The notes under the pieces are model-generated. The model ran no database searches. It was not told the DNA's origin and was given only the letters and a program-made list of their open reading frames with translations. Both the position numbers and the translations under genes were made by a program. 64,000 nt of DNA from the NCBI GenBank assembly GCA_027339745.1, contig DAHWNW010000002.1:55725-119724 (forward strand), read 5' to 3'. This DNA comes from Nitrososphaerota archaeon. Lineage in GTDB: Archaea; Thermoproteota; Nitrososphaeria; Nitrososphaerales; Gagatemarchaeaceae. Shown here one piece after another: positions 7,378 to 64,000 of the stretch (the first letter of the stretch is position 1; each line of letters begins with the position of its first letter).

Positions 7378-7423
7378 ATGCAGCGCCGACGCCCCTCTGT
7401 TTATAGGCTGTTCGAGACGCCGG

Positions 7424-28664: not shown

Positions 28665-31365
28665 CGGCCGACCTTCTGATGTAGAAGGCCACGCCCAGCG
28701 CGACAATCAGGACGAACGCCGACGGAATCGCGTACCGGAGCAATATGTTCTCTGCTATCGTGACGGAGACGGAGGTCGGCACGGTCCCGCTGATTGTGAC
28801 ACCCGCGTAGGCGAACGTCAGCTTGGCCCCGCTCATGGAAATAGTCTGGCCTGAGTTGGCCACCACGCTTGCGTTGGCCACGCCGGTCTCGTGCGCCCCC
28901 AGGTTCGAGAAGTACACCATGATCTCTTTCGAATTGGCCTGCAAGCCCTGGAGGTTGGAGAAGGTCAATCCCGGGGGTATCGGGAGCGTGAAGGTCACAT
29001 CTGAGACAGGGACCGCCGACGGGTTGGTCACCTGCAGCGAGAGGGTGAAGGCCTTCCCCTCCTCGGGGGTCGCGGGCGTGGTTGTCATGGCGACAGAGAG
29101 CGGCTGGTATATCTGGACGGTAGGGCTCCCCCCTTTGACTGCGAACGTGGTTCCGCCGAAGTAGAAGGAGGCCGAGACAGGGGCGGCCGAAAGGTTCCCG
29201 TATATCTGCGCGGTCGACACCTTGTAGGAGAACGTGACGTTCCCTCCTTTACCGATTGACCCGACCGTCTGGTGGAGCACGCTAGAATTGACGATGGAGT
29301 CGAAGGCGTCGTTGGTGGTGCTCACCGTAACGTTGTAGATCGGGGTCGGCCCCAGGTTCTCAGCCATGACCGTGACAGACGAAGTCATGCCGCCGAAGAG
29401 CTCCTGAGGCGAGTACCCCTTGGACAGGACAAGGCCGGCGGGGACAGGGACCGGGCCCGAAGAGCCTGACACTGACTCCCCGGCCGCCTCGCCGGTGAAC
29501 GTGAAGGGCTGTATCATGTAATTGGAACCGTCGGTAACGTTGTAGCTCATCGACGTCCTGACGGTGGTTGAGGCGTTGAGGGTCTTGTAGGAGAGGGTGA
29601 CCGTGCCTGACGCGCAGCTGATTCCCAGGCCGCTCACGTGGCCGCAGCCAAGGCCTGCAGGGAGGACACCTGTCGCTACGTAGTCGGTCACGCCGACTGG
29701 CGCTATGTCCGAGGCGGCGAAGTTGAGTGTGACGTTGGTCTCGCTCGTCGAGAGCGCCGCGAAGGAGGAGGTCACTTGGAGAACAGGGAACGAGACTTGC
29801 ATCCCGTTCTGCGAAAAGACGTCGGAGATCGTGTTCGTGGTAGCGTTGAGGGCAGCCCCCTGAGGGTCCTGGTACGTCACGCTGTAGGACCTCGTGACGT
29901 TTATGGCAGTGATGCTCGGCGCTGACTGCGTCACCGTGACGGTCGCGGTCCCTCCGCCGGCAGCCAAGCCAGGCACTGACTTGCCTGCCACGACCACGGA
30001 AGAAGCTGGGAGGGTCCCAACGTTGACCAGCGTTATGTTGAGAGTCTGCGGAGTCCCCACGGCCTTCCCAAGGCTGTCGGCCGGGGATGGGACCATGGTA
30101 GCATACACCACCGCGTCGTCTGCCCCGAGGGACAGCCTGATGGGGTTGATCACAGTGGTCGCGTTGAAGGCCGCGCCCCCGAATTCGTACTGGTAACTCA
30201 CGACGGAAGCGGGGATGGTGATCGAGCCGTTTGTGGTCCCGGTGTACTCTAGCCTGTAGACCGGCGTGAGGGTAGCCGATGGGCCCAGGGAGGCGGACTT
30301 GACAGAATCGTTGCCGCCAAGGAAGGTGAATACGCCTGTGGTCTTCCACCATGAGTCAGAGAACGAGAGGCCGAAGATGGATGTCGTCGGCGAGAGGTTG
30401 GTGAAAGTGAGCGTGACGGCGAGGTCTCCGTTGGTGTGAAGGACCCCGACATCGACGGCCCTCGTGGCGAGGAGCGGGGCAGGCTGCTCTACGATGGTCG
30501 CGTTCGTGCCATAGATGGTCTGGCGCGGAGCGAGCTTCAGGGTGTAGGACCCAGTGAAGGCTGCGCCGTTGTCCTTCACGACGGCGCTGTCGTTGGAGCT
30601 GATCATGCCGCTCAATGCCTCTATGTGGATCTCAGACGAATTGCTCGCGGCGGACGCTGTCAACGAGGTCACCGAGCCACCGAAGAGGCCCACCGCGTTA
30701 AGCTCCCCTGCTGACGTGAGGGCCGATGGGGTGATGGAGCCGACCACCAGGTTGTGAACGAACCCGGACCCCGACGAGCCCTTCACCCCTTCCAGCACGA
30801 CGAACGGGGACTCTGAGCCCGCGAACGCAGGCCCTGACACAGCCCTCGCAAACCCCCCCTCGGCCGTCGGAAGGAAGTTCTTGAGAAGCGTCGCGGGGAC
30901 AAGGCTTGAGAAGGCGACCGGACTAAGGAACGTATAGACCCCGGTGCTGTTTGTTGTGGACATGAAGTCTGTGAGGAGGTACGGGTCGAGGGCTGCCGCC
31001 GCTGCGGAGGCTTGAGAGAAGGAGCTGGCACCCACGGTCAGGAAAATCCCCTGCGGGACCAGTGAGGGGACCGGGAGGAGGTTGTATCCATTCGGACCGA
31101 ATACCTGAAAGTCTGGGTTCCATCCTAGGGTGCTGACCGCTGTGATGTTGTACCAGCTGAGCCCAGGTGTGGACTCCAGCGCTGAGAGGTGGCTGGACCC
31201 GTTCACCCCGTCGAATGTGAAGAACCACAGGGCGTTCGATCCTGCTACATACACGTTCAGCTTCTCAGAGTATGAGGAAGTCTGGGCGTGCGCCATCTGC
31301 ATCGGGACCGCCGAGAAGAGCATGAGGGCAACGACCGCGAACGCTAGCAACCGGTAGTGCTTCAA
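28639..31365 (-). CDS. Large secreted, C-terminally membrane-anchored surface protein
   Basis: Signal peptide 'MKHYRLLAFAVVALMLFSAVPMQMAHAQ', Ser/Thr/Ala/Gly-rich beta-type sequence with many N-x-S/T sequons, and C-terminal TM 'AFVLIVALGVAFYIRRS'. Confidence 0.75.
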   Translation of the reverse strand: MKHYRLLAFAVVALMLFSAVPMQMAHAQTSSYSEKLNVYVAGSNALWFFTFDGVNGSSHLSALESTPGLSWYNITAVSTLGWNPDFQVFGPNGYNLLPVPSLVPQGIFLTVGASSFSQASAAAAALDPYLLTDFMSTTNSTGVYTFLSPVAFSSLVPATLLKNFLPTAEGGFARAVSGPAFAGSESPFVVLEGVKGSSGSGFVHNLVVGSITPSALTSAGELNAVGLFGGSVTSLTASAASNSSEIHIEALSGMISSNDSAVVKDNGAAFTGSYTLKLAPRQTIYGTNATIVEQPAPLLATRAVDVGVLHTNGDLAVTLTFTNLSPTTSIFGLSFSDSWWKTTGVFTFLGGNDSVKSASLGPSATLTPVYRLEYTGTTNGSITIPASVVSYQYEFGGAAFNATTVINPIRLSLGADDAVVYATMVPSPADSLGKAVGTPQTLNITLVNVGTLPASSVVVAGKSVPGLAAGGGTATVTVTQSAPSITAINVTRSYSVTYQDPQGAALNATTNTISDVFSQNGMQVSFPVLQVTSSFAALSTSETNVTLNFAASDIAPVGVTDYVATGVLPAGLGCGHVSGLGISCASGTVTLSYKTLNASTTVRTSMSYNVTDGSNYMIQPFTFTGEAAGESVSGSSGPVPVPAGLVLSKGYSPQELFGGMTSSVTVMAENLGPTPIYNVTVSTTNDAFDSIVNSSVLHQTVGSIGKGGNVTFSYKVSTAQIYGNLSAAPVSASFYFGGTTFAVKGGSPTVQIYQPLSVAMTTTPATPEEGKAFTLSLQVTNPSAVPVSDVTFTLPIPPGLTFSNLQGLQANSKEIMVYFSNLGAHETGVANASVVANSGQTISMSGAKLTFAYAGVTISGTVPTSVSVTIAENILLRYAIPSAFVLIVALGVAFYIRRSAAIAPSSPR

Positions 31366-50780: not shown

Positions 50781-50967
50781 GGCAGGCGCACCCCGGCCGG
50801 GCGCTAAAATCTTTACCCAATCACCCCCTATCCGCCTGCCGTAGCACGTCGTCCGTTCGGTGTCGTCGGGACGATCGCCAGGCGCGAGAATGTGTCAGGC
50901 ACTAGGGACCCCTGGCCGAAGCCCCCGACTCGCAGGGCTGGCCGGGCCTGCCCTGAGCTCGGATGAA

Positions 50968-51675
50968 TCAGTCTGGCCTTGGGGCGGGGGCGGTCATGGC
51001 TTCTTCGAGCTCCTTCAGGTCCTTCAGCGAGTCGACGAACGTCCACTCACCATAATATGGGTAGGAGAGTAGCGCCCCGTAGGTGACTAGTTTGGGGAAG
51101 GTCTCCCTCTCTATGTCCCCCTTGTCAGGCAGGTTCTTCGCGATCCTTGGCCCGTTGAGGACATAGACCCCGCCGTTGATCCATACGTCAGGGAAGGCCG
51201 GCTTCTCGTCGAACCCTCTGATCATCTTGAGCTTGTCTATCTTCACCACGCCGAATCTTGACCGGTAAGGGACCACGAGCATGGAGGCTGAAACCCCGCC
51301 GGCCCCGCCGTAGTCGTCGATCATCCTCTTCAACGGGAGGTCGGTGACGATGTCCCCGTTGGTGACCACGAAGGTCTCTTCGGACGGGTACTTCGCTATA
51401 GCTTTCTTGATCCCGCCGCCTGTCCCGAGTGGCTCGGCCTCCACGGAGTAGTCCACGGCGACCCCTTCGAAGCTCGCCCCGAAGTGCTCCCTCAGCCTCT
51501 CCCACTTGTAGCCGCAGGCGAAGGTCACAGCGTCGACGCCTCCCTCCTTGACCAGCCACTGGATTTGGTACTCGGCGATCGGCTTGCCGTTGACAGGTAT
51601 CAGGGCCTTAGGCTTGTCGTCTGTCAGGGGTCGCAGTCGCATCCCCAGGCCGCCGCTGAGAATGATCGCCCTCAT
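50968..51675 (-). CDS. Sugar-1-phosphate nucleotidyltransferase
   Basis: 'MRAIILSGGLGMRLRPLTDDKPKALIPV' signature. ATG at 51673-51675; the longer track ORF prefix is Arg/Gly/His-rich. Confidence 0.8.
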   Translation of the reverse strand: MRAIILSGGLGMRLRPLTDDKPKALIPVNGKPIAEYQIQWLVKEGGVDAVTFACGYKWERLREHFGASFEGVAVDYSVEAEPLGTGGGIKKAIAKYPSEETFVVTNGDIVTDLPLKRMIDDYGGAGGVSASMLVVPYRSRFGVVKIDKLKMIRGFDEKPAFPDVWINGGVYVLNGPRIAKNLPDKGDIERETFPKLVTYGALLSYPYYGEWTFVDSLKDLKELEEAMTAPAPRPD

Positions 51676-51743
51676 CGTCGAGCGGACATCCCTCGGGGAG
51701 ACCGCTCGATAAATGCTTCCCTGGCGTTTTGCGGCGCGTGAGG

Positions 51744-52148
51744 CTACAACGTCACGTTGAGGGAGCCGACGAGAGAGACAGGGACGTCCGTAGCGGTGGT
51801 CGTGAAGACAGTGGCGGTGTATGCCCCCGACGGCACCGTGGGGGACACGGCCACGAAACACTGCACCTCCTGGCCTGCCGAGAATGAACAAGAGGCTACG
51901 TTCCAATAGACGACCTGGCCGGCATGGTTGGTCAAGCCAAGGTAGACGAACGAGGTGAAGGACGTGGCGTAGGTGCTGGTGTAGTTCACCATCACCCCCT
52001 GGTAGCTGCCGATTGTGACCTGCTTCATCCCTGACTGTGAAATCGCGTTGGTGAGGTAGTCTGGGGCCGCCGCGCTGCTGAGAGGCGCCATTGAGACCAG
52101 GAGCAAGCAGACAGCCAGCAGGAACAAACCGGGCAGGTGCGACCTCAA
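51744..52148 (-). CDS. Small secreted protein homologous to the C-terminal domain of the 992-aa surface protein
   Basis: Signal peptide 'MRSHLPGLFLLAVCLLLVSMAPLSSAAA'. The C-terminal about 68 aa align without gaps to the end of the 53084-56062 product. TATA-like 'TTATATAC' lies about 25-30 nt upstream. Confidence 0.6.
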   Translation of the reverse strand: MRSHLPGLFLLAVCLLLVSMAPLSSAAAPDYLTNAISQSGMKQVTIGSYQGVMVNYTSTYATSFTSFVYLGLTNHAGQVVYWNVASCSFSAGQEVQCFVAVSPTVPSGAYTATVFTTTATDVPVSLVGSLNVTL

Positions 52149-52294
52149 TCCAAGAGTCGCGTTGCAGTTTCAGTATATAATCCTAACAATGTGAAAGTGC
52201 TCAGCTTGACGGCCAAGCGGACGAAGGCGAGGCGACCTAGCTTGGAAGGGCTGCGTCCCACCAGGACTTGCACCAGAGCTTACGCTAGGGTTGC

Positions 52295-52308
52295 TAAAAT
52301 AAAGAAAG
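52295..52308 (-). terminator. T-rich terminator candidate (TTTCTTTATTTT on the minus strand)
   Basis: Lies about 15-30 nt downstream of the TAA stop of the 251-aa gene. Confidence 0.4.
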
Positions 52309-52323
52309 GGTCAGGAGAGTCTC

Positions 52324-53079
52324 TTACGAGATCTTCCTGACTAAAATTGCTAGCTCTAGGACTAGGGTTATCGCTGCGAGTACGGCGACTACCAAGACAT
52401 ACGTCTGGGTAGCCGAGATGGCGCTGCCCGAGGGCAACGAAGACTGGATGCTGTTGACCGTTGTCTGGATGCTCCCCACCGTGGAGGTAAGGCCGTTGAT
52501 GTTGCTGAGGATGGTGCCAACGTTGGTGCTGATTGTCCCCACAGTAGAGGAGATTGTCCCCACCGCAGAGGAGACGGTGCCCAACGTCGATGTGATGGCG
52601 GCAAGGTCGTTCATTATCGTCTGCTGGTTCGCCAGCACCTTGTTCAGGGTGGCGTTGACCTGCAGGAGCGCTGCGGTCTCGTTGAACGATGATGACGCCG
52701 GTGCAGTGTATGTGAAGGTGGTTGTACCCGTCGCTCCGTATGAATCGAGGGCCGTGATTGTGTAAGTCCCGCTGATCCAGGCCGACGTTCCGCCGACAGC
52801 CGTCGAATAGGTGAACGAGCCGCTTGAGACGGTCACGCTCGCAATGTCGACTGTCTGGCCTGATGGGTTCTTTACGGTGAGACCCACCTGGTCGGGTTGG
52901 GTCGGTGCGGGGCTTATGGTGCCGGAGATCGTGTAGGCCTGCGAGCCGCTGTATGAGGCGCCGGCCGCTGGGCTGGTGAACGTTATGCTACCAGCAGCGG
53001 TGGCGATCATAGGCGAAAGCGCAAGGACCAGCGCGATCGAGACTGCGGCGATTGCTGGGAGTGTCTTCATGGTGGCCAC
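52324..53079 (-). CDS. SlaB-like S-layer stalk candidate: signal peptide, beta domain, heptad coiled coil, C-terminal TM anchor
   Basis: 'MATMKTLPAIAAVSIALVLALSPMIATAAG' signal, about 110-aa Ser/Thr-rich domain, about 12 consecutive heptads, and C-terminal 'YVLVVAVLAAITLVLELAILVRK'. Starts 4 nt after the upstream gene. Confidence 0.6.
   Translation of the reverse strand: MATMKTLPAIAAVSIALVLALSPMIATAAGSITFTSPAAGASYSGSQAYTISGTISPAPTQPDQVGLTVKNPSGQTVDIASVTVSSGSFTYSTAVGGTSAWISGTYTITALDSYGATGTTTFTYTAPASSSFNETAALLQVNATLNKVLANQQTIMNDLAAITSTLGTVSSAVGTISSTVGTISTNVGTILSNINGLTSTVGSIQTTVNSIQSSLPSGSAISATQTYVLVVAVLAAITLVLELAILVRKIS
52445..52600 (-). repeat. Tandem 21-bp coding repeats (7-residue xVGTISS units)
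   Basis: For example, GATTGTCCCCACAGTAGAGGA followed by GATTGTCCCCACCGCAGAGGA on the plus strand, encoding TLGTVSS/AVGTISS/TVGTIST/NVGTILS/NINGLTS/TVGSIQT/TVNSIQS. Confidence 0.8.
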
Positions 53080-53083
53080 CCGA

Positions 53084-56062
53084 TTAGACGGTGACGGAGA
53101 TTGATGTAGATACTGATACGGGCAGGTTACCCGTGGTGAAGACGAAGATGCTCACAGAGTAGGTGCCGCTCGCGAGGCCTACCGGCTCCGCGATGAACAC
53201 CGACTGCGTCACACCTGCCCCGACTGTGAGGCTCCCTGTCCCGATGCCCACCGTCTGGCCGGCGCCGTTCTTATAGACGGCGAAGACCACGACGCTCTGA
53301 GCGGTCGGGTTCAGGTTGGTGTACGACGCGCTGATGCCTGAGAACGAACCTATCGTCGCTGATTGTGGGGTGCCTGAGACCACGAAGGACTGTGCGAACG
53401 GGACGGTCACGTGGACGGTCAGCGTTTGGCTGCTGTTCACGTTGCCCGCTAGGTCTGCCGCGCTCAGTGCGATGCTCCAGTTCCCGGTCGTGAGACCGGA
53501 GATGGTGACACCGTACGTCACGCTGTGCCCGACGTTATTGGTGCCGGACACGCTGACCGACAGGGTCTGCGTGGCTGAGGTCTGGATGTTGGTCGCCACT
53601 GCGCTGACGCTGGATGAGTTGAGGTCACCCAGACTGTCGGTGATCGTGGCGGTTACCGTCGCTGGCGAGGAGATGTTAGCGTTGGGGACCGTCACGAAGT
53701 TGACGCTCGGAGCGCTCGTGTCGACGAGCACCGAGTAAGTCCCTGTCTGTGCGGTGTTCCCATTGCTGTCGGTGGCGTTGAACGATATGGTGTGCAGACC
53801 CGCGCCAATGTTGACCGCGATTGCCCAAGTGACCTGGTTCGCCGTCTCTGACGAGCAACTCGACAGAGTCCCTGCAGTGTAGCAGACCGACGCGATGGTC
53901 GCTGCTGCCACGCCGGTGGTCGGATAACCGATCGAGGCGTTCGCGCTGCCGTGGAATACGACAGGCGTGCTATTTGCATAGATCACGCCGGACATTGGAA
54001 GCGGTGAGCTGACACCTATTGTTGGATTCGCGCTGACCACGCCGATGGTCGTTTCACCGGAGACTGCCTGCCCTGCGACCACGCCAGTAGCGGTGATCTT
54101 GGCGGTCCCTAGTGTCGACGGAGCGGTGTAGATTACCGCACCGAAGGACGACCCTGTGGTGGAGTGGCCTGCAGTGATGTAGACGTTTGTCGCTGAGAGG
54201 AGACCCGTAGACGCCGCCAGGTTCACCTGGAGCGTGTTGGCATTCGCGGCGAGCGTCACATCGTTCCCGTAGGCATCTACCAGGGTTACGTCGAGGTAGA
54301 GCGTCCCTGAGGAGACGGTGTTGGTCGCTGGGCCGCTGAAGACCGGCGGGTTCCCTGACGCGTAGTAGTAGGCGTTAACCTTGAACGAGGCCGCGGGGCC
54401 TGCTGCTGTTGTTGCCTGCGGTACTGTCCCGGTTACGTTGGCTAGGTCGTGGGTCGGCGCGGCGTAGGTGGGCGCGGTCGCGTTCATCGTGAACGTGACT
54501 TCGGCGCCTTCCAGCGTGTCGACCTTGAAGGAGGTTTGGACCATCCCTGAGCTGTTGGTGTCTAGGGTGATGTATTGGAGTCCGTTGGAGAAGGTACCCA
54601 CGTAGGCACCGTCACCCAGCGTCACTGCGCCGGTTCCTGGCAAGTCCAGGGCGATGTTCACTGGAACACCCTGCTGGACTGTAGGGAGCGTGGCGTAGAC
54701 GCTGATTGAAGAGCCCGCCGTTGGAGCGGCGTTGCTGACGGCCGGGGTGGGCGACGTCGCTGAGAAGGTCCCTGTAGTCGCTGTCCCGCTGTTACCGGCT
54801 ATTGTAAAGGCGGTAGCTCCCGCCCCATAAGTTCCGCTTATGGTGGCGCTGAACTGACCGACAGAACCATAGACGCCGGACTGGAAGTAGTTGTACGGGA
54901 GGTCCCCGCTGACCGCGCTGCCGGTGCCGTATGGCGTGGCGATGCACGCGGCGTTCGTTGTGCAGCTGACGGTTGAGGGGAGGTTGGTGGTGTCGAAGAC
55001 GCCGCTTGCCGAGAGGGCGGTCAAGGAGACCGAGCTGACGACGAGGTTGGCTGTGTTGAAAGCAATCGAGTTGCCGAACTTGTCGGCGATCGAATAGGTG
55101 CCGCTCGCGGCTGCGAGTTCAGCACCGGTGAAGGTAGTGTGGGTCGTTGGCGAGGTGTTTGTGGTAGTCCCTTGGGTGCTGAGGTAGTTGCTGGATTCGC
55201 CGCTTATGAGGAATGTTACCTCTGAGGGCGCACCAGGTCCTGTAGCTATACTGCTCGGGGCTGGCGTGATTGCGGTGCTGGTCCCGGCTGACGCCTTTAT
55301 GGCTGAGGGGCCATCGGCTACCGTGTCAGTCGGCTGGAATGTCGTGCTTGCGACACCTCCGTTCGCGCTAGCTGCAGTCACCCCCGTTGTGGGAGAGACT
55401 GTGCCGTAGGTGGACGTCACCGCCCACTCAATCGGCACGCCAGCGTTGCCGAGGTTGTTCGTTGTGGTGAGGGTCACCGTTGGGTTGCATGCGGGCGTAC
55501 CTGCTGTGTAGGTCCCGGTCACGCAAGAGTCGGTGGCACCGTATGAGATTGCGAGAGCCGCTGAAGCGCCGACGGAGTACAGCTTCTGGGTCGGTCCTGC
55601 GTAGTACGCGGCCGAAGAGCCGTCCTGAACCGTCGTCGTCACCGTCCCGGTTATCGCGTTGGCGGTAGACGGAGCGGGGGCTGTCGCGATGCTGAAGAAG
55701 TCAAATGTGGTGACGGATGCCCCCGGCGAGAGCGCAAGCGTGCAAGACACGCTAGACGAGGTCGAGTGGCAGCCATAGTCTGAAGTTTCGTAGTTAGCTG
55801 TCGAGAATGTCCATCCCGACGGCGCTGTGATCGTCAAGGCCGTGAGAGCGTAGGCGTTGCTGCTCGGGTTCGACACCGTTATCGCCTCCGAGGCAGAGCC
55901 AGACACTACGTTCTGACTAAGTGTGACAGTTGGGGGAGAGGCGTTCGCGGCGCTCACCGGCGTCACCAAGGGCACCAGGATGAGTAGAGCCGAAAACGCT
56001 AGGAGTGAGAGTAGAAGTCCTGAGCTAAATTTTCTTTGATACGCATTCGTAGGCGTATACAT
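53084..56062 (-). CDS. SlaA-like large secreted surface (S-layer candidate) protein, no membrane anchor
   Basis: Signal peptide 'FSSGLLLSLLAFSALLILVPLVTPVSA'. 992 aa rich in Thr/Ser/Ala/Gly/Val with many N-x-S/T sites and no C-terminal TM. Immediately upstream of the anchored coiled-coil protein. Confidence 0.6.
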   Translation of the reverse strand: MYTPTNAYQRKFSSGLLLSLLAFSALLILVPLVTPVSAANASPPTVTLSQNVVSGSASEAITVSNPSSNAYALTALTITAPSGWTFSTANYETSDYGCHSTSSSVSCTLALSPGASVTTFDFFSIATAPAPSTANAITGTVTTTVQDGSSAAYYAGPTQKLYSVGASAALAISYGATDSCVTGTYTAGTPACNPTVTLTTTNNLGNAGVPIEWAVTSTYGTVSPTTGVTAASANGGVASTTFQPTDTVADGPSAIKASAGTSTAITPAPSSIATGPGAPSEVTFLISGESSNYLSTQGTTTNTSPTTHTTFTGAELAAASGTYSIADKFGNSIAFNTANLVVSSVSLTALSASGVFDTTNLPSTVSCTTNAACIATPYGTGSAVSGDLPYNYFQSGVYGSVGQFSATISGTYGAGATAFTIAGNSGTATTGTFSATSPTPAVSNAAPTAGSSISVYATLPTVQQGVPVNIALDLPGTGAVTLGDGAYVGTFSNGLQYITLDTNSSGMVQTSFKVDTLEGAEVTFTMNATAPTYAAPTHDLANVTGTVPQATTAAGPAASFKVNAYYYASGNPPVFSGPATNTVSSGTLYLDVTLVDAYGNDVTLAANANTLQVNLAASTGLLSATNVYITAGHSTTGSSFGAVIYTAPSTLGTAKITATGVVAGQAVSGETTIGVVSANPTIGVSSPLPMSGVIYANSTPVVFHGSANASIGYPTTGVAAATIASVCYTAGTLSSCSSETANQVTWAIAVNIGAGLHTISFNATDSNGNTAQTGTYSVLVDTSAPSVNFVTVPNANISSPATVTATITDSLGDLNSSSVSAVATNIQTSATQTLSVSVSGTNNVGHSVTYGVTISGLTTGNWSIALSAADLAGNVNSSQTLTVHVTVPFAQSFVVSGTPQSATIGSFSGISASYTNLNPTAQSVVVFAVYKNGAGQTVGIGTGSLTVGAGVTQSVFIAEPVGLASGTYSVSIFVFTTGNLPVSVSTSISVTV

Positions 56063-56089
56063 TTATTTTCAGGGTTGCGGCCAGGATTC

Positions 56090-56098
56090 TATATATAA
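56090..56098 (-). promoter_or_regulatory. TATA box (TTATATATA on the minus strand) for the 992-aa surface protein gene
   Basis: Centred about 32 nt upstream of the ATG at 56060-56062 and preceded by an A/T-rich stretch. Consistent with a short-leader or leaderless strong promoter. Confidence 0.55.
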
Positions 56099-56566
56099 CC
56101 GTAGTGGACAAATGGTCTACTTTCGCGCAGACTATAGGAGAAAAGCGCCGCCCTACGCTCTTTCGAGGAATAGGAGGCAGAACCGAACGAATCGAGCGGC
56201 CAGAAGAGAGGAACGCCGGTATTGGCCGCTGCCGGCCGACCGCCTGGCTGCTGCGGTTCGCCAGGTTCGCCGTTTTATGCGGAACATGGGGTCCCCGGCT
56301 TGCCTTTGACCGATCCCCGGAAGATGGGCACTAGAGCCAGCACCCAATCAGGTTAAAACACATCCAACATCAGGATGGCAGGCATATTGCTGGCCGCGAA
56401 TCTGCTCAGGAGCGAAGGTGAATTCACCCGGATTGCAGGCGGGAAGGGAATCGGTGCCGCGGGCAGGACGTCGCTACTTGAGAGAGGGCGCCCTGAACCC
56501 CCTCGGCGGGCCAGCCTCAAGGTGAGCTAGACGGCTTCGCCATTCTACGCGGGCTACATCCTCTAC

Positions 56567-58354
56567 TTGGCCTCGGTTCTTGTTCCTGGGTACGGCATTG
56601 GGGAACTCGCCGGAAGATGGAAGGGAGGGGACGACCTCATCCACCGGATCGGGCATTCACTCGGCTACGGGCTAGCTGTCGACACGGCGGTCTTGGTCAT
56701 AGAGACCACCGGTTTCAGATTTGGTGGAATCGCCCTCGTGGGGCTGGACGTCTACTCTCTCTATTTCCTCGTCGCCCTCGGAGCCGTCATGTACCTGGTG
56801 GCGGTCGTGCGAAGGCGGAGGGTCGCAGGGTTGCCTAGGGTCGACAAGGAGTCGATAGGCGTCCTTGGATGCGTGGCGGTGATCGGCGCCATCGCTTGGC
56901 TCTATTTCGTGTCCTATCCGATCTTTCCTCGGGACTACAACCCCGACTTCATAGCCTTGGTGGGCTCCCCTCGCGAGCTGATCAGTGGCACCCTGACCTC
57001 CATCCCCAGGTTAGTGCTTTACGGCGCGGGATACTACCAGACCGCCGCTGCGTTCCTAGCCGTCGGCTCTACGGGGATTCAGACAGCCCAGGTCTCGATG
57101 TCCATCCTGGCAACCCTGTCCCCCACCTTGGTGTATGCGACGACGCTCAGTCTCACTGGCGACAAGCGAAGCGGGTTGTTGGTCACGGCGATCTACTCCC
57201 TGTCAGGGAGCATCTGGACGCAGATGGTGTTCGTGGATGGCCTTTATCCGAACTTCGTCGGGACTCTGCTCGAGCTCGTCCTCTTGGTCACGTTCATCGA
57301 CCTCGCCAAGAACCCCCGCAGCCGTTCGCTCTGGCTGCTTTCGGCGCCAGTCGTCCTAGCCGCATACTTTTCGCACTATTCGGTTCTCTCTGTCTTCGGT
57401 ACATTCGCGATCCTGTCGTTGGCCCTTGCGATGATGAGGAGCCCGCAATTCAAAGGGACGGCTGTCGCAACCATCGCATTCCTTATCCCCGGAGCTCTTG
57501 GCGCCCTGGCGTTCAGAAGGCAGCTCGACTTGGCGCTGGTCATCTCTTACACCAGCGGCGCCCCGCAGCCGCTGACCACCTATCTTTCGAAAGCGCTCAG
57601 CTTTCTGCCGTCTATAGCCTACCTTGCATTTGACGTGAGGAATGACATCGGGTTTCTGGCCGCCATTACGTTGTTGGCCTTCTCGTTGTACAGAGGGTAC
57701 AAGCGCAAGGATTACGCCATTCTCCCCTTCGCCATCTGGTTCTTCGCTTTGCTGATCGCCTCCCCACAGGACTACGCTGCTTGGAGGTTCGAGCTCGAAG
57801 CGATAATGCCCTTGACGATACTAGCCGGGTACGGGCTGAACTCGATGATACCGAGCACAAGGGCTCGCAAACAGGCGAGATTGAGGAAAGGCGACCCCTA
57901 CAAGTTCGCCGCCGTGATGTTCGTACTCCTCTTCCTGACCCCGATAGTTGCTACTGGATGGGCGTCATCGTTCACGCAGAGCCTCGCGCTAGAGTCTGGC
58001 AAACAAGCGACGGTACAGTCACAGGTCAACGCGACCATGACCTGGCTCGAGGAGAACACACCCCCTTCCTCGTCTTTTCTTTCGGTCACAGACCCGACTT
58101 TCTTGTACTCGGCGCTTCAGATAGGGCATAACTGCACCTATGAGTACATGGGGAACGAGACCCAGGCTATCTCCTATGCCAGGTCCAACGGCCTCTCCTA
58201 CATCATCGTCACCAAGCACGATGTGTTCTTCAGCCAGGTCTTGCAGCCGGCCAACGACTCAGCCCCGTATCTCCCATGGTTCACGTACAAACCTACCGCT
58301 GGCGTGACTTTGGTCTATTACAATCCTAACGTCCGGGTGTTCCAAGTGTCCTGA
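56567..58354 (+). CDS. GT-C-like polytopic membrane glycosyltransferase candidate (AglB/STT3- or PMT/ArnT-like architecture, no WWDYG)
   Basis: About a dozen hydrophobic helices, then a soluble C-domain of about 130 aa. The first loop has 'FPRDYNPDF'. After the last TM, 'WLEENTPPSSSFLSVTDPTF' occupies the place of 'W(L/I)xxNTPxxxxVxSWWDYG'. TTG start. Confidence 0.55.
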   Translation: MASVLVPGYGIGELAGRWKGGDDLIHRIGHSLGYGLAVDTAVLVIETTGFRFGGIALVGLDVYSLYFLVALGAVMYLVAVVRRRRVAGLPRVDKESIGVLGCVAVIGAIAWLYFVSYPIFPRDYNPDFIALVGSPRELISGTLTSIPRLVLYGAGYYQTAAAFLAVGSTGIQTAQVSMSILATLSPTLVYATTLSLTGDKRSGLLVTAIYSLSGSIWTQMVFVDGLYPNFVGTLLELVLLVTFIDLAKNPRSRSLWLLSAPVVLAAYFSHYSVLSVFGTFAILSLALAMMRSPQFKGTAVATIAFLIPGALGALAFRRQLDLALVISYTSGAPQPLTTYLSKALSFLPSIAYLAFDVRNDIGFLAAITLLAFSLYRGYKRKDYAILPFAIWFFALLIASPQDYAAWRFELEAIMPLTILAGYGLNSMIPSTRARKQARLRKGDPYKFAAVMFVLLFLTPIVATGWASSFTQSLALESGKQATVQSQVNATMTWLEENTPPSSSFLSVTDPTFLYSALQIGHNCTYEYMGNETQAISYARSNGLSYIIVTKHDVFFSQVLQPANDSAPYLPWFTYKPTAGVTLVYYNPNVRVFQVS

Positions 58355-58522
58355 ACCCCGCACGATGGGGCGGTGCCTCCGCACGTACGCCGCAAGCCCC
58401 CGGGGCATCTGGGGAGCGCTTGTTTGGGAGCATGGATGATTGATGCGGAAGAGGCAAGCGACATCGAATGACCTCTTTGCCAAGACATTCTCTTCGTCGG
58501 TGCTCCTTGGCCCGAGTCCTGT

Positions 58523-59110
58523 CTACGAGATGGTGATCTTCCCTGAAATCTGCGTACCAATTATAGAAAAGGTGGATGTGCCGGCGGTCTGGAAGACCCA
58601 AGTGAACCCCTGCCCAGGAGCAAGCGCGAAGTCCCCGACCCCCCCTACGCTCAGCGTCACGCTTGTTGTCCCGGTGTTGACCCACTCCACCGGGGTGACC
58701 GAATGGAGGGCTGCGGCCTCGGTATCATTGAATCCTTGCTGCGAGACCCCTATGACGACTTTGATCGGCGTGTAAATCCCTACGGCGTAGGCTGTCTTAC
58801 CTGACTCGAGCACCAGGCTGTGCTCAGGGGGGGTGACGTACCATTTGACCTGGGGGAAGGTGACAGTATACGGGCCTTGGGTCATAGTAGCGTTGTAGGG
58901 AGTAAGGACGCTGTTTCCATCCACAGTGGCCTGGACTCGGATTTCGGACGTCCCACCGCTCCCGTTCTCCAGGTACGCGTTCACCACGAGGGTCCCGGTG
59001 CCCGGACCCACAGAGGTGACCAATGCGTAGAACACGGCGGCTCCTACTATGACAATAGGCACCATGAAGAGAATCGTCCCGATCCTTCGGCGGCGTGATG
59101 CACCTTTCAA
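58523..59110 (-). CDS. N-terminally anchored extracytoplasmic protein (PEGA-like plus cupredoxin-like beta domains)
   Basis: 'RRRRIGTILFMVPIVIVGAAVFYALV' signal anchor, 'VQATVDGNSVLTPYNATMTQGPYTVTF' PEGA-like segment, and a C-terminal beta-rich domain with no obvious Cu ligands. Confidence 0.5.
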   Translation of the reverse strand: MKGASRRRRIGTILFMVPIVIVGAAVFYALVTSVGPGTGTLVVNAYLENGSGGTSEIRVQATVDGNSVLTPYNATMTQGPYTVTFPQVKWYVTPPEHSLVLESGKTAYAVGIYTPIKVVIGVSQQGFNDTEAAALHSVTPVEWVNTGTTSVTLSVGGVGDFALAPGQGFTWVFQTAGTSTFSIIGTQISGKITIS

Positions 59111-59738
59111 ATGGAATTCGGCCTCGCGAGACGTCCCCTTTGGAACATGGTAAGCAGCTTTCCAGATACCCTTCCCGAACGCCAGAAAAACGTTATCGAA
59201 GAGGGTGGTCCTTCGGGGTCACCCGACATGCTGGGTCTTTTGCGCGGCTGTAGAGGTTCGAAGGGGCGAAGAATCACCGTGAGCGGCATAGCTCAGAAGG
59301 CAGATGCCCTCCGGCGGTTCTCTGCCGAGCACTGAGCCGTATGTAGTCGCGGCATTCTGGACGCGCCCGCAGGTCAGTTGGACCAGGTCGCGTTGTCTGC
59401 TGCCTTAGGAATTGACTCAGTTTCGATGGCAGAACAACATATGCTTCTTCGGCTGTCGCAGACAGGCGCTTGGGAACGCGACTTCCATCTGGTATCTGGG
59501 CGAGGTATCTGGGGTAGAGCTACCCTCCCAATGCGGTGTCGGGGATACTGCTGGACGATTCAACGCTCTTCGTTTTGCATCCAGTTGCCGCGTACGCCGC
59601 CCTTCGGTGTAACCTCCAATGCGAGCACAAGATTAGGAGCGGGGACGGAACTCAACCGCCTTGGTAGCGGACCTCTTGTGACGCTTGTCTGCAGTTCCCG
59701 GCCAAGGGAGATATATGGGCAGAGGAGAGCGCCCCTTC

Positions 59739-60641
59739 ATGGACGTCACAGTGCTCATACCAGCTCACAATGAGGAGGGCACGATAGCGAAGGTCATCGT
59801 AAAGGCCAAGGAGCACTCGAACCGAGTGGTAGTCTGTGACGACGGGTCCACCGACATGACCGGGAGGATCGCTGAGTCTCTGGGAGCCGAAGTAATCAGA
59901 ACCTCGCACAACCTTGGCTACGGAGCCGCACTTTCGACCCTTTTGACAAGGGCCAAGGAAATAGGAGCGGGCGTCGTGGTGACGCTCGACGGAGACGGGC
60001 AGCACGACCCCGACGAGATCCCCATAGTGATAGAGCCTTTGCTCAAAGGAGAGGCAGACATAGTGATAGGCTCGCGGTTTCTGGCCGGTGACCGCAAGAT
60101 GCCGAGGTATAGGACCGTGGGGATAAAGGCGATCACAGGCCTCTCCAACAGTGTGGGAGACCTCAAGGTGTCAGACGCACAGTCGGGGTTCAGGGCGTAC
60201 GCCCTCGACGCAATCTCATCGGTCTTACCTACTGAGCTCGGCATGGGCGCGAGCACCGAGATCCTTCTTAAAGCAAGCCGGGCAAGCTTAAGGATTGTCG
60301 AGGTCCCCATCAACGTGTCATACGAGAAAGGGGCAAGCAGGAACCCTGTCTATCACGGGGTTGAAGTCGTCTTTGCGACCATCAAGCACGTATCGATACT
60401 CCATCCGCTGATCGTCTATGGTATCCCAGGGTTCGCGTTCATGTTGTACGGGTTGTATCTAGGATCGAACGCTCTACGTATCTACGAAGACGTCCACAAG
60501 GTGATAATCGGCACAACGCTAATTTCGATGGGAGCCATCCTGGTCGGGCTCATATTGGCCATTACAGCGCTGATAATCTGGATCATGATATCAGTGGTGC
60601 GGAGCCCCCTGTATCAAGCCGGGCGCACGACGCCTGCTTAG
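59739..60641 (+). CDS. GT2 dolichyl-phosphate sugar synthase-like glycosyltransferase (DPM1/GtrB-like) with C-terminal TM helices
   Basis: 'VTVLIPAHNEEGTI', 'VVVCDDGSTDMT', 'VVTLDGDGQHDP', 'GFRAY', then two hydrophobic helices at the C-terminus. ATG at 59739; alternative starts at 59685 and 59715. Confidence 0.8.
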   Translation: MDVTVLIPAHNEEGTIAKVIVKAKEHSNRVVVCDDGSTDMTGRIAESLGAEVIRTSHNLGYGAALSTLLTRAKEIGAGVVVTLDGDGQHDPDEIPIVIEPLLKGEADIVIGSRFLAGDRKMPRYRTVGIKAITGLSNSVGDLKVSDAQSGFRAYALDAISSVLPTELGMGASTEILLKASRASLRIVEVPINVSYEKGASRNPVYHGVEVVFATIKHVSILHPLIVYGIPGFAFMLYGLYLGSNALRIYEDVHKVIIGTTLISMGAILVGLILAITALIIWIMISVVRSPLYQAGRTTPA

Positions 60642-60720
60642 GGTCACATCAGGGGCGCATGGTCCTCCACTCACACCGAGCGACCCGGACTTACGCCAAC
60701 CTTTTCGCGAGGAAGACGCG

Positions 60721-60845
60721 TCATCGCTGGCCGAGCGGTAACCGGGCCCCTGGAAGACCTGCCCGGTCTCGGCCAGGGCCGACCGCGTATCGCCAAGGTG
60801 GGCCTGAAGCATGAGTGGTACCGCTCCTCTTCTGGGCGTCGATGA
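60721..60845 (+). pseudogene. tRNA-Ser(GGA)-like sequence, apparently degenerate (pseudogene or tRNA-derived relic)
   Basis: 'UGGCCGAGCGGUAA' class-II D-arm 14-mer (60728-60741). Anticodon stem GGCCC/GGGCC encloses loop CUGGAAG|A, interrupted by an 18-nt segment at 37/38 with a BHB-like helix. However, the 3' D-stem is missing, the T-loop is non-consensus and the acceptor stem is imperfect. Confidence 0.3.
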
Positions 60846-60994
60846 AAACGGACTCTACGAGGTCCCATTGGACCAAGAATCGAAAGTTCAAGGGCGGGTT
60901 TGATCACGACGCTGTAAGATGGGAGCCGTGGGACAGTCAGGCTGGCCCGGCGAGCGGCGCAAAATTATTATCAGCAAGGCTGACTGCGTCCTGA

Positions 60995-62299
60995 GTGCGT
61001 GCGACCGACCCCGAGCCAGGCTCGCACGTCAAGAGCGTCACGCTCCTCGCCACCATTGGAACCGTCGCCGAGTATTATGACTTCGCGCTCGCGGGTGCCT
61101 GCGCAGCGCTTGTCTGGCCATTCGTTTTCTTCCCCTCGTCTAGCTCCGCGGCAGGCTTCGCTCTCTCCTTCGGGACCTACGGCTCCGCCTTGCTCTTCCA
61201 ACCAGTTGGCGCCGCATTGTTCGGCCACCTGGGGGACCGGCGAGGAAGGAAGCCGTCGCTTGTCCTGACCCTCTCCCTGATGGGTATAGGGTCCCTCGGG
61301 CTCGGACTGGTCCCCAGCTATGAGGCTATTGGGGCGCTCGCGCCGCTGCTCGTGGTGGCCATGCGCGTCCTTCAGGGAATCGGATTCGGAGGAGAGCTGT
61401 CTGGGTCCGCGACTTGGGTGGCCGAAGCTGCCGCTGACACCAATAGGAGGTCGTTCTGGACCGGGTTCCTTTCTGTGTCGCGCACCGCTGGTGCCCTGCT
61501 CTCCTTCAGTATGTTCTACGCTGTCTCGGCTGTACTGCCTCGGGCAGAGTTTCTCGGGTCCGGGTGGAGGCTCCTCTTCATAGGGGGGGCGGCGGCGCTC
61601 CTTGTGGGCGTCGTCGTAAGGTACAGATTTACGAGGGACATTTTGTACTTGGAGGCGAAGGCCAGGAACGCACTGGTGAAGGCGCCTGTCATCTCCGCAG
61701 CGAAGAAGGACTGGGGGACCATACTTGCCCTGGGGGTGTCCACCACTGGGTTCCTGTCCATCATCCTCGTGATGCTCCAGTCCTTCTCTCTGAACTATCT
61801 GACGAAGGTGGGGGTCGGCGTCACCTTCGCTGCCGAACTCTTGGTGTTGGGGAGGACGCCTGAGCTTGTCGTAACTCCTGCGGCCACGCTCCTCGCGGAC
61901 AGATTTGGGAGAAAGGCCACCCTCATCGCAGGAGGGGTAGCATGTCTTATTCCCATCCTACTGTTCTATCCTCTCCTTCACACATCTTCAGTGGGGCCGG
62001 TAGTGCTAGGATTCGCCCTCCTCGGGATCAGCTCATCGTTTGGCTATGCGAGCGCGCCCGCCCTCTTCGCGGAGTCCTTTCCGACAAGCCATAGGTTCTC
62101 AGGGGTCGGGCTCGCCTACAACATCCCGGTTCTGGTGACGGGGTCGCTGACGACCCTCGTCATACCACTTTACATCGCCGCTTTTGGGGGCGCAGTTGGC
62201 GCCGCCAATTATGTGGCAATCACTATATTCGGGATCACCGCAGTCTCCATCGTGGCAGGACTGGTAGTGCACGAAACGAGGACCGCCGATATGCACTGA
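60995..62299 (+). CDS. MFS transporter (metabolite:H+ symporter-like)
   Basis: About 12 TM helices and 'FGHLGDRRGRKP' loop 2-3 motif. GTG start. Confidence 0.85.
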   Translation: MRATDPEPGSHVKSVTLLATIGTVAEYYDFALAGACAALVWPFVFFPSSSSAAGFALSFGTYGSALLFQPVGAALFGHLGDRRGRKPSLVLTLSLMGIGSLGLGLVPSYEAIGALAPLLVVAMRVLQGIGFGGELSGSATWVAEAAADTNRRSFWTGFLSVSRTAGALLSFSMFYAVSAVLPRAEFLGSGWRLLFIGGAAALLVGVVVRYRFTRDILYLEAKARNALVKAPVISAAKKDWGTILALGVSTTGFLSIILVMLQSFSLNYLTKVGVGVTFAAELLVLGRTPELVVTPAATLLADRFGRKATLIAGGVACLIPILLFYPLLHTSSVGPVVLGFALLGISSSFGYASAPALFAESFPTSHRFSGVGLAYNIPVLVTGSLTTLVIPLYIAAFGGAVGAANYVAITIFGITAVSIVAGLVVHETRTADMH

Positions 62300-62351
62300 C
62301 GCCAAGGATGGCCACGCTGAGAGCGTCCGCCTGTCGGCGATCACTGGGGAC

Positions 62352-63683
62352 TCATCGCGACAGGGTCACCCTGCTCAACACGGGTCTGGACTTGGACCAA
62401 AACTCGTCCGGAGTCCTATAGGAAGTCTCGACCACCACGTCGGTCTCCATTGTCGATTCTAGGTATTGCTTCAGGCGCTGGAGCGCAGAAGGGCTCGGCG
62501 CTTCGTCGGGGGAAGTCTTGAGCAGGAACCTGCCTACATCGAGCTGTATCAGCTGATAGTCTGCCAGCCCAAGACTGGATTCAGCCCAGTCAGCAACCGT
62601 CAAGGGCGAAACCTGCTCCCGGCGACTGTTCATAAGCCAGTCTGCCTTCCGCCCCAGCACCTTCCTGATCCTCATCAGGTTCGAGCCACAAGGGCAAGCT
62701 TCTCCGTCTGCCATTTCCACGACATCTCCCAGCCGGTACCTGATGAACGGCATCAGGGGGTTATGGAGCGAGGTTACCACGAGCTCGCCCGTTTCGCCTG
62801 GTCCGACTGGCTCGTCGTCCTTGAGGACTTCGGGGAAGATGAAGTCCTCATTGAAGTGGAGTCCCCTGTGAGCCGTGCAGACTGCACCCATCGGACCGAC
62901 TTCGGCTGCGCCATACCCCCAGAAGATCTCTGAACCATATAGCCCTTCTAACTCTCTGGCGCAGGTTTGGGTGAATACTTCGTTCGTTAGGACGAGCCCT
63001 CTGGGATGGATGCTTTCGCCTCTGGCCTTTAGAAATCGCCCAATCCGCCTGAGGTTTGACGGCCTGCATATCACGAAATCTGGGTTCATGCTCCTCAGGA
63101 CTTCGGCGTCCCGCTCGACATCCCAATTTGAACTCAACAACGGCTTCAGAAAGGGAAGGGGCCGCCCAAGCACTCCGAGCGGGAAGGAGAGTGAGAACGT
63201 ATCTCGCTTCAGCCGCCCATCCCTGTCTTGTCCAGGGCGCCAATAGGAGGTCGGGGGCCAGATTGATACTATTCGATGCCACGGCCTCGCTCCATAGTGG
63301 AGCAGGTGCCTCACCGTCATCGCTGTAGTCACTGCATGGTACTCCCGAGAGAAAGCAAGCCTAATCCTGGCCCCGCTGGTGCCGGTGGTCGACGAGTAAG
63401 ATCCTAAAGTGTTGATGAGGTTCTGCGATATCATCGCCTCTCCATTGCGTTCCACATCGCTCCTTTCGAGGATTGGTAGCGTCCTGAGGTCTTCGAGGGA
63501 CCTGAAGCCGAAGCCCTCAAGGGTCGAGGCGCGAGCGAACCTACGCCTGTAGAAAGGTACATTTTGGTAAGCCAAGGCGATTACTCGCCTCAGCTTCTTG
63601 TACTGGAGCTCCCTCAGCTCTTCTCTGGAGATTCTCGAGTTTCTGAACGCTTCGATGTAGGTCTTCGCGTCTTCCACTAACAA
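62352..63683 (-). CDS. Phenylacetate-CoA ligase / coenzyme F390 synthetase-like adenylate-forming enzyme
   Basis: PaaK-like layout: 'SSTTGTSGARI' P-loop-type AMP motif, 'GYGAAEVGP', 'YRLGDV'. Confidence 0.7.
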   Translation of the reverse strand: MLVEDAKTYIEAFRNSRISREELRELQYKKLRRVIALAYQNVPFYRRRFARASTLEGFGFRSLEDLRTLPILERSDVERNGEAMISQNLINTLGSYSSTTGTSGARIRLAFSREYHAVTTAMTVRHLLHYGARPWHRIVSIWPPTSYWRPGQDRDGRLKRDTFSLSFPLGVLGRPLPFLKPLLSSNWDVERDAEVLRSMNPDFVICRPSNLRRIGRFLKARGESIHPRGLVLTNEVFTQTCARELEGLYGSEIFWGYGAAEVGPMGAVCTAHRGLHFNEDFIFPEVLKDDEPVGPGETGELVVTSLHNPLMPFIRYRLGDVVEMADGEACPCGSNLMRIRKVLGRKADWLMNSRREQVSPLTVADWAESSLGLADYQLIQLDVGRFLLKTSPDEAPSPSALQRLKQYLESTMETDVVVETSYRTPDEFWSKSRPVLSRVTLSR

Positions 63684-64000
63684 AGGAGATGAAGGGGTTG
63701 ACCTGCCCCATTAAATCAATCGGTTAACGCCCTGCTCCATGACCACCATGAGATACCCTCGACGCTGGAGAGGGCATCACGTCGGGGAAAGCCCTCGGCT
63801 TCAGATGCGACGATCGCCCTGCTAGGCGTGGCTCAATCTGCGCACACAATGGAGATCCTACTGAACCGGACGTTGACCTTCGAGGTTAGAACCGAGACGG
63901 CTACGTATCTCCTCGCAGTAGGCGATGAAGGACGATTGCGTTCTCACCTTCTCGGTTCTCGGCCGGGGGACGTTGATAGCCACATCGCTGACGAGCTTTG

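Follow-up and report, generated by a model that had tools for sequence, protein, structure and literature searches.

We describe a pair of adjacent genes on the minus strand of a 64,000-nt stretch of contig DAHWNW010000002.1 (Nitrososphaerota archaeon, Gagatemarchaeaceae), hereafter the window, with positions counted from its first letter; the pair probably encodes a two-component surface layer (S-layer) in which a secreted canopy protein is held by a minimal anchor of the SlaB type. The large-protein gene (53084..56062) is an open reading frame (ORF) of 992 amino acids (aa) with an ATG start, and the small-protein gene (52324..53079), of 251 aa with a GTG start, begins 4 nt past it. The initial annotation of this DNA had reported two minus-strand genes 4 nt apart, with a strong TATA box ~32 nt upstream of the large-gene ATG; both ORFs were recovered at these positions and lengths, and the box is indeed present (TTATATAT, 56098-56091). 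Public gene callers place the start of the small gene at an ATG at 53070, giving a product of 248 aa and a 13-nt gap to the large gene. A T-rich tract read past the stop codon of the small gene (52296..52307, minus strand) is likely the archaeal terminator of a two-gene transcript; no such tract was read in the gap between the large and small genes, and because it occurs only 3' of the small gene a bicistronic transcript would fit. The source genome, matched in public records to the Nitrososphaerota assembly GCA_029785075.1 (contig JAFMAJ010000001.1), has a GC content of ~62%, and a tRNA and Rfam scan of the window returned no tRNA and no Rfam family. A word-indexed search detected more than 280 homologues for the small protein, and for the large one 44; both are therefore real genes rather than chance ORFs.

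The AlphaFold2 (AF2) model of the small protein (predicted local distance difference test score, pLDDT, 82.9) comprises a low-confidence signal segment (residues 1-28), a beta-sandwich (30-125, pLDDT >90), one continuous helix (134-214), a short linker and a transmembrane (TM) helix (223-250) that ends in RKIS. The sandwich is an MG2-like immunoglobulin (Ig) domain (52705..52992, minus strand), assigned from the model and from hhalign alignment to the first domain of SlaB; the continuous helix is a Ser/Thr-rich coiled-coil stalk (52438..52680, minus strand), assigned from the model and from heptad analysis; and the TM helix TYVLVVAVLAAITLVLELAILVRK (52330..52413, minus strand) carries an embedded Glu, as seen in alignment A1, our profile of 70 small-protein family members. 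Heptads continue in a single register from ~138 to 216 (~12 heptads), with L/I/V/M at 22 of 25 a/d positions, position a being mostly V or L and position d mostly I or V. Such beta-branched V/I at a/d is only suggestive of a trimer. Two sequons (N133 and N142) sit at the top of the stalk, whose 81 helical residues would span ~12 nm if straight. A signal peptide, one beta-domain, about 12 uninterrupted heptads within a coiled coil at residues ~130-225, and a C-terminal TM helix followed by 'RK' had all been read from the translation beforehand, and each has its equivalent in the model or the heptad register. Foldseek searches of the Protein Data Bank (PDB) with this model returned macroglobulin-type (MG) Ig domains, with no S-layer protein in the top 50.

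Within the sampled family (A1 and the 53 related loci described below) the TM helix is near-invariant while the Ig domains and stalks vary widely; its Glu is replaced by Val in one clade. This invariance is partly a matter of ascertainment, because both family searches were seeded on the TM segment, and one of three independently found partners retains a TM helix of the TYVLVVAVLAAITLVLELAILVRK type.

Two-component layers made of SlaA and SlaB are established in the Sulfolobales (PMC5744192, PMC10903991), and it is SlaB to which the small protein is distantly related. Single-sequence searches of the PDB gave coiled-coil noise only and no informative match, and the family profile scored too weakly against single SlaB sequences for a judgement. 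Searched against the PDB as a profile, A1 has as its top match 8qox_B, the SlaB of S. acidocaldarius, and the best NCBIfam match of the small protein is NF040788 (SlaB; 32.8 bits, E 3.4e-8), in an alignment that reaches the last model position. Comparison by hhalign of A1 with an alignment of 28 Sulfolobales SlaB sequences (A3) gave 97.9% (E 4e-13), colinear from the beta domain through the coiled coil and the TM helix to a shared RKIS. Reversed controls were run because coiled coils inflate hhalign scores. The full A1 scored 94.2% (E 1.2e-7) against reversed full-length SlaB, in a match limited to the coiled coil, and the coiled coil alone scored 92.3% (E 5.7e-7) against the reversed SlaB coiled coil. 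The Ig domain alone scored 92.3% (E 5.7e-7) against SlaB residues 1-335, aligning to the first SlaB domain (29-128), versus 0.2% (E 0.32) against the reversed SlaB N-terminus. Because the coiled coil matches reversed SlaB about equally well, we relied only on the Ig domain and on colinearity, not on the full-length score.

Judged from these profiles, the match of the Ig domain to the first SlaB domain is real. Family members of greater length (330-514 aa), which carry additional Ig domains, align with the whole of SlaB (hhalign 99.0%, E 3.5e-18), and with six SlaB homologues of ammonia-oxidizing archaea (AOA) at 96.7% (E 3.8e-10), the corresponding value for A1 being 94.6%. Pfam MG2 is matched both by the first domain of S. 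acidocaldarius SlaB and by the first Ig domain of family members. SlaB itself carries two or three beta-sandwiches (PMC5744192, PMC10903991); the small protein has one (30-125) instead of two or three in succession, and a helix of ~81 rather than ~132 residues, so that the SlaB-like stalk proposed at the outset, and described there as much shorter than SlaB, is borne out on both counts. We conclude that the small protein is by profile homology a real, minimal and distant SlaB relative. In the Sulfolobus SlaB trimer the Ig-like domains point towards the SlaA canopy and the N-terminal one is the proposed SlaA contact (PMC10903991); the Ig domain retained by the small protein is the counterpart of this canopy-facing end.

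The large protein is extreme in composition, with Thr (16.2%), Ser (13.7%), Ala (13.6%) and Gly (9.6%) together making up 53% of its residues. Its charged residues number just 42 and its pI is 4.2; it carries 12 N-X-S/T sequons and four Cys pairs, each closely spaced. A signal peptide occupies residues ~1-38, and the C-terminus has no hydrophobic segment and no TM helix. Its AF2 model (pLDDT 82.5) is nearly all beta after the N-terminal signal helix, with Ig/MG-like folds. Composition and model agree with what had first been noted, namely a signal peptide, a Thr/Ser/Ala/Gly-rich beta-type sequence and a non-hydrophobic C-terminus, and the protein answers to a SlaA-type description: large, secreted, beta-rich, sequon-bearing and without a membrane anchor. 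Foldseek matches the model in the PDB to generic multi-Ig arrays (hydin, alpha-2-macroglobulin, complement) at TM-scores <=0.17.

A profile of the large family (A2) collects 216 cluster representatives at E<1e-30, and by these alignments the protein belongs to a new unanchored family. The members inspected are without a C-terminal anchor and all end in the same conserved C-terminal domain. Matches of ~860-925 aa to the profile were considered as fusions and rejected as such; they are shorter unanchored homologues. Column identity to the window protein is at its lowest over the N-terminal half (0.29-0.38) and reaches 0.56-0.57 at the C-terminal end, a gradient that would follow from an exposed N-terminus and a C-terminus turned towards a conserved partner. 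Nowhere is the family more conserved than in the C-terminal domain (residues 896-992; 53087..53377, minus strand), and at the most distant loci tblastn still matches the large protein solely at residues ~895-992. We regard this domain as the candidate face towards the small protein.

The pairing of the two genes is conserved. A locus scan seeded on the TM motif and restricted to one genome per species yielded 53 loci (L001-L053), essentially all in metagenome-assembled genomes (MAGs) labelled Nitrososphaerota, Thaumarchaeota or unclassified archaeon, one being Ca. Gagatemarchaeum. In most of the 53, among those where the order could be judged, the gene immediately before the small one is the large gene, and the common order is large gene, small gene, a short third gene (orf134), a sugar nucleotidyltransferase and a Rieske protein, often with a gene for a 595-aa membrane protein divergently upstream. 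Because the scan was seeded on the TM motif, divergent members of the large family were used as a second starting point. For all three members so used, the next gene, 1-16 nt downstream, encodes a small partner in which a signal peptide is followed by one or two Ig-like domains, then a stalk, then a TM helix at the C-terminus; Pfam MG2 was confirmed in two of these partners. Conservation of the gene pair in related genomes, raised initially as a check, thus extends to divergent members. At locus L056 (4000-4740, plus strand) the stalk between the Ig and TM segments of the small partner is Thr/Ser/Val-rich low-complexity sequence rather than a heptad coiled coil.

The 5' end of the large gene is likewise conserved in layout. 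On the minus strand, a palindrome (TAGACCATTTGTCCA, 56105..56119; consensus TGGACAATTTGTCCA) lies 6-8 nt upstream of the TATA box and is a candidate transcription-factor site; the TATA box (TTATATAT, 56091..56098), centred ~32 nt upstream of the ATG, is kept in relatives; a conserved TGAAAATA motif (56064..56071) immediately precedes the start codon; and a hairpin with arms ATACGC and GCGTAT around the loop ctacgaat (56039..56058) starts 1 nt after the ATG and covers codons 2-8. By its position, TGAAAATA is probably the transcription-start region, and a start there would therefore leave a very short, near-leaderless leader. The palindrome is the sole site in the window with at most three mismatches to TGGACAATTTGTCCA, and a stricter 13-nt core has one match in each of 16 loci. 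The combination of palindrome, TATA box and GAAAA occurs in 35 of the 53 loci when up to four palindrome mismatches are allowed, and in the window and these 35 loci the common order is palindrome, TATA box, YGAAAAYA, start codon and a perfect hairpin of 6-10 bp. Examples are L002, L023, L029, L046 and L052, and they include single-chain genes of the kind described below.

A stem of at least 6 bp occurs at the same place in all 36 of these sequences, with 17 distinct arms that include compensatory changes (e.g., ATACGC/GCGTAT, ATACAC/GTGTAT, ATACTC/GAGTAT and ATATGC/GCATAT) and with loops of 2 to 8 nt. Among shuffled sequences, 29% reach 6 bp anywhere in 48 nt. RNAalifold predicted no structure on the MAFFT alignment, in which short-loop variants were misaligned, and for that reason hairpins were sought one sequence at a time and pairs were counted in fixed columns; by the latter count, 84% of cells are paired and the observed covariation is reached by 1 of 500 shuffles. 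The minimum free energy of the window hairpin is unremarkable (z -0.66). That the loops differ in length speaks for a hairpin and against a site for a dimeric protein, and since the stem lies inside codons 2-8 it may contribute to the conserved peptide MYT..NAY.

In 14 of the 53 loci (L029, L033, L034, L035, L037, L039, L041-L044, L046, L047, L049 and L052; gene ends at ~7000-7500 in most) the same promoter architecture precedes a single protein of 783-903 aa and there is no separate canopy gene. Eleven of these 14 genes lie directly upstream of the nucleotidyltransferase-Rieske pair, as at two-gene loci. The single-chain proteins begin with an unusual signal peptide like that of the window large protein (hhalign 96.9% over 37 columns) and have a coiled coil and TM anchor like those at the end of the window small protein; no relation was detected between their ectodomain and the large family. 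A domain-level fusion of the large and small proteins was accordingly rejected, as the single chains share just the signal peptide with the large family and not the ectodomain. That the head of the large gene and the tail of the small gene are joined in these proteins nonetheless supports the view that the two form one functional unit.

Taken together, we consider it probable that the locus encodes a two-component S-layer, a secreted canopy plus a minimal SlaB anchor, in a Nitrososphaerota lineage that is not of the AOA type; the host is most likely an uncultured archaeon of acid environments. The 992-aa glycoprotein would be exported by Sec to form the canopy lattice, its variable N-terminal domains facing outward and its conserved C-terminal domains facing the cell, and its very few charged residues would suit an acidic habitat. 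The minimal SlaB (248/251 aa) would be anchored in the membrane by its TM helix, its Ser/Thr-rich helix forming a coiled-coil stalk of ~12 nm that is probably trimeric, and its single MG2-like Ig domain would hold the canopy, probably through the conserved C-terminal domain of the latter. Both genes would be expressed from the one TATA promoter, with the palindrome just upstream, a near-leaderless 5' end and then the hairpin. The sequons, Cys pairs, low charge, variable N-terminus with conserved C-terminus, and flanking nucleotidyltransferase and glycosyltransferase family 2 (GT2) genes are marks of an envelope locus and support this interpretation.

Several observations weigh against it. Codon usage gives no support for high expression, the pair having a GC content at third codon positions (GC3) of 0.74-0.75 and an effective number of codons (ENC) of 44-47 versus ~0.82 and 40 for most window genes, in a test that is weak either way in a high-GC genome. 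The small protein (32.8 bits) falls far short of the 700-bit equivalog cut-off of NF040788, and its coiled-coil similarity to SlaB is compositional and no evidence of kinship, because reversed SlaB scores 92-94%. For the large protein, PDB searches with the sequence or its profile found no SlaA, no S-layer protein of N. maritimus (NmSLP) and no other solved protein, and no S-layer protein, SlaA included, is among the top 50 Foldseek PDB matches of its model. The structural comparison with SlaA that had been proposed for it thus came back empty, and of the SlaA half of the initial annotation the logic of the role stands, as an analogy, and a relation in sequence or fold does not; since none was detected, 'SlaA-like' denotes here an analogy of role and not membership. 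In N. maritimus, moreover, the SlaB homologue is far less abundant than the S-layer protein (SLP) and its anchoring role is unproven (PMC11153153). Lastly, the window encodes another large anchored glycoprotein, of 908 aa.

That protein (28639-31365, minus strand) gives substance to an alternative we think possible at a clearly lower probability, in which the pair is an adhesin or minor envelope complex on a SlaB-like stalk and the lattice is made by another protein, such as the 908-aa one. Its sequence begins with a signal peptide, bears 21 sequons and has a TM helix at the C-terminus, and a TATA-like box serves its gene. The codon bias of the pair is ordinary, and the SlaB homologue of N. 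maritimus is itself a minor protein (PMC11153153). However, Pfam TRAP_beta (translocon-associated protein beta) matches the 908-aa protein at 32 bits, over a gathering cut-off of 22.4, and DUF11 does so weakly. Such matches suggest a conserved function at the membrane and not a coat that evolves fast, whereas the pair looks like a coat locus in several respects: a fast-diverging ectodomain with a conserved leader and anchor, a dedicated conserved promoter and a conserved genome position. The 908-aa protein, whose gene lies between a RadA-like gene and an ORF at 27603-28664, may instead be a further envelope or translocon-associated protein.

Two other explanations arise from database matches. 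The large protein could be imagined as a membrane-tethered, alpha-2-macroglobulin (A2M)-like protease trap, given that the best Foldseek matches include MG-domain arrays of A2M and complement, but those matches have TM-scores no higher than 0.17, there is no Pfam A2M-family match, and both the CGEQ thioester motif and, in the AF2 model, the helical (thioester) domain are absent; on the latter two grounds we reject A2M identity, and this explanation is very improbable. Automatic JGI names of some relatives ('phage-related minor tail protein'), together with reovirus sigma-1 and P22 gp26 among the PDB coiled-coil matches, would point to a tail-fibre module of a prophage or virus. The viral matches reflect coiled-coil composition only, however, and the proteins have Sec signal peptides and a TM anchor; in most fetched loci, too, the gene adjoins the nucleotidyltransferase and Rieske genes, to which the source genome adds PfkB, transketolase and ribulose-phosphate epimerase. 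With its genomic context against it and its matches explained by composition, the phage-fibre explanation was rejected as extremely improbable.

A third gene, orf134 (51744..52148, minus strand; 134 aa), encodes a secreted stand-alone copy of the large-protein C-terminal domain and is a paralogue of residues 896-992 (blastp E 1e-9). A separate TATA-like box precedes it at 52173-52180, NCBI and ENA both annotate orf134, and 11 related loci have a match to it at the equivalent downstream position; its product may compete with or complement the anchor-facing domain of the canopy. Divergent from the pair, a 595-aa multi-TM protein (56567..58354, plus strand) is linked to the locus in many relatives and has conserved Asp, Arg and His residues; it matched no family in Pfam, NCBIfam or the PDB, even with an 8-sequence profile. 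Within the window the locus is flanked by nucleotidyltransferase and GT2 genes, and in the source genome the nucleotidyltransferase and Rieske genes are followed by those for PfkB, transketolase and ribulose-phosphate epimerase. The nucleotidyltransferase appears as a mechanical ORF of 312 aa (50968-51906, minus strand) over-extended into orf134, and as 235 aa in public calls. From ~50900 to 64000, a region that holds the nucleotidyltransferase, the S-layer pair, a GT2 gene (59685-60641) and a major facilitator superfamily transporter (60995-62299), ORF GC3 falls from ~0.82 to 0.69-0.77 and ENC rises. This lower GC3 and higher ENC over an envelope and glycosylation region suggest a compositionally distinct island of surface genes.

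Compared with the known Sulfolobales system (S. acidocaldarius; PDB 7ZCX, 8QOX and 8QP0; Veith 2009, Gambelli 2019 and 2024), the window pair has the same order of canopy gene then anchor gene, on one strand and almost abutting. The small protein shares with SlaB a signal peptide, an N-terminal MG2-like sandwich, a Ser/Thr/Asn-rich heptad stalk and one C-terminal TM helix, and ends in RKIS where the SlaB consensus is YRKIS; the large protein resembles SlaA in its size, its beta-rich and glycosylation-prone character, its low charge and its lack of an anchor. In contrast to the Sulfolobales, the canopy shows no relation to SlaA in sequence or fold, a conserved Glu lies within the TM helix, and the last canopy domain also occurs as a free copy, the product of a third gene. 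Individual beta-sandwiches resemble in fold those of the MG-domain arrays of alpha-2-macroglobulin and complement, but without a thioester domain or motif and without global superposition (TM <=0.17). The single-chain relatives, which unite ectodomain, stalk and TM anchor in 14 loci, recall Staphylothermus tetrabrachion and Pyrobaculum PySLP (bioRxiv 10.64898/2026.08.21.746120), a likeness in architecture, whereas the window splits this function over two genes.

A closer parallel comes from within the phylum. AOA encode a pair of SLP and SlaB homologue, in N. maritimus NmSLP (A9A4Y9) and A9A4Y8 (von Kügelgen et al. 2024, PMC11153153), and SlaA/SlaB pairs have been tabulated for Nitrosopumilus, Cenarchaeum, Nitrosarchaeum, Nitrosotenuis, Nitrosotalea, Nitrososphaera and Nitrosocaldus, all ammonia oxidizers (PMC11153153); the presence of slp and slaB across AOA was also used by Jung et al. 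2024 (PMC11559005). As in the window, the canopy is an Ig array encoded beside a SlaB homologue whose TM helix is C-terminal, and the two anchors have homologous first Ig domains. The AOA form of SlaB differs from the window small protein in carrying two Ig domains, in a coiled coil that is short and charged, and in a TM segment of the form …IIALQI…ARRR. NmSLP is undetected by the large-protein profile, even in a PDB search at E up to 10, and as far as the models go the two canopies would have in common only the Ig-like fold class. The published table holds AOA genera only; the lineage here has 62% GC, and the Gagatemarchaeaceae are described as non-ammonia-oxidizing with 54-62% GC (PMC10640624), in a paper naming the family of Ca. 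Gagatemarchaeum that does not mention S-layers.

The architecture is thus not new to the phylum, because pairs of SLP and SlaB have been published for ammonia-oxidizing Nitrososphaerota (PMC11153153). Where the initial annotation had proposed a minimal, divergent version of the SlaA/SlaB design in another lineage, the minimal SlaB and the lineage hold up, and the design itself was already known from AOA. What is new is the lineage, the distinct canopy family and the single-Ig variant of SlaB, the stalk of which resembles the Sulfolobales type more than the AOA type.

It is tempting to go further and view the locus as a lineage-specific S-layer cassette, with a fixed promoter and hairpin at the front, a fixed SlaB stalk at the back, and an ectodomain that is swapped or split off in between, an idea we hold only tentatively and think more likely wrong than right. 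If true, the hairpin would act after transcription or on stability, as an element not described before for archaeal envelope genes, and the palindrome would be a dedicated operator, the Glu-containing TM helix may dock to the linked 595-aa membrane protein, and orf134 may tune anchor occupancy. The operator and start-proximal hairpin offer in any case testable handles on how archaea drive the expression of envelope genes, and the locus supplies candidate genes for MAG annotation, metaproteomics and cryo-electron tomography. A compact SlaB of one Ig domain and ~81 helical residues may also ease study of this anchor. The two-component S-layer reading would extend SlaB-anchored layers to a high-GC lineage for which the literature searched describes no envelope genes. 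By profile comparison the SlaB of Sulfolobales, that of AOA and the family described here share their first domain, and this supports an old anchor module common to Thermoproteota and Nitrososphaerota.

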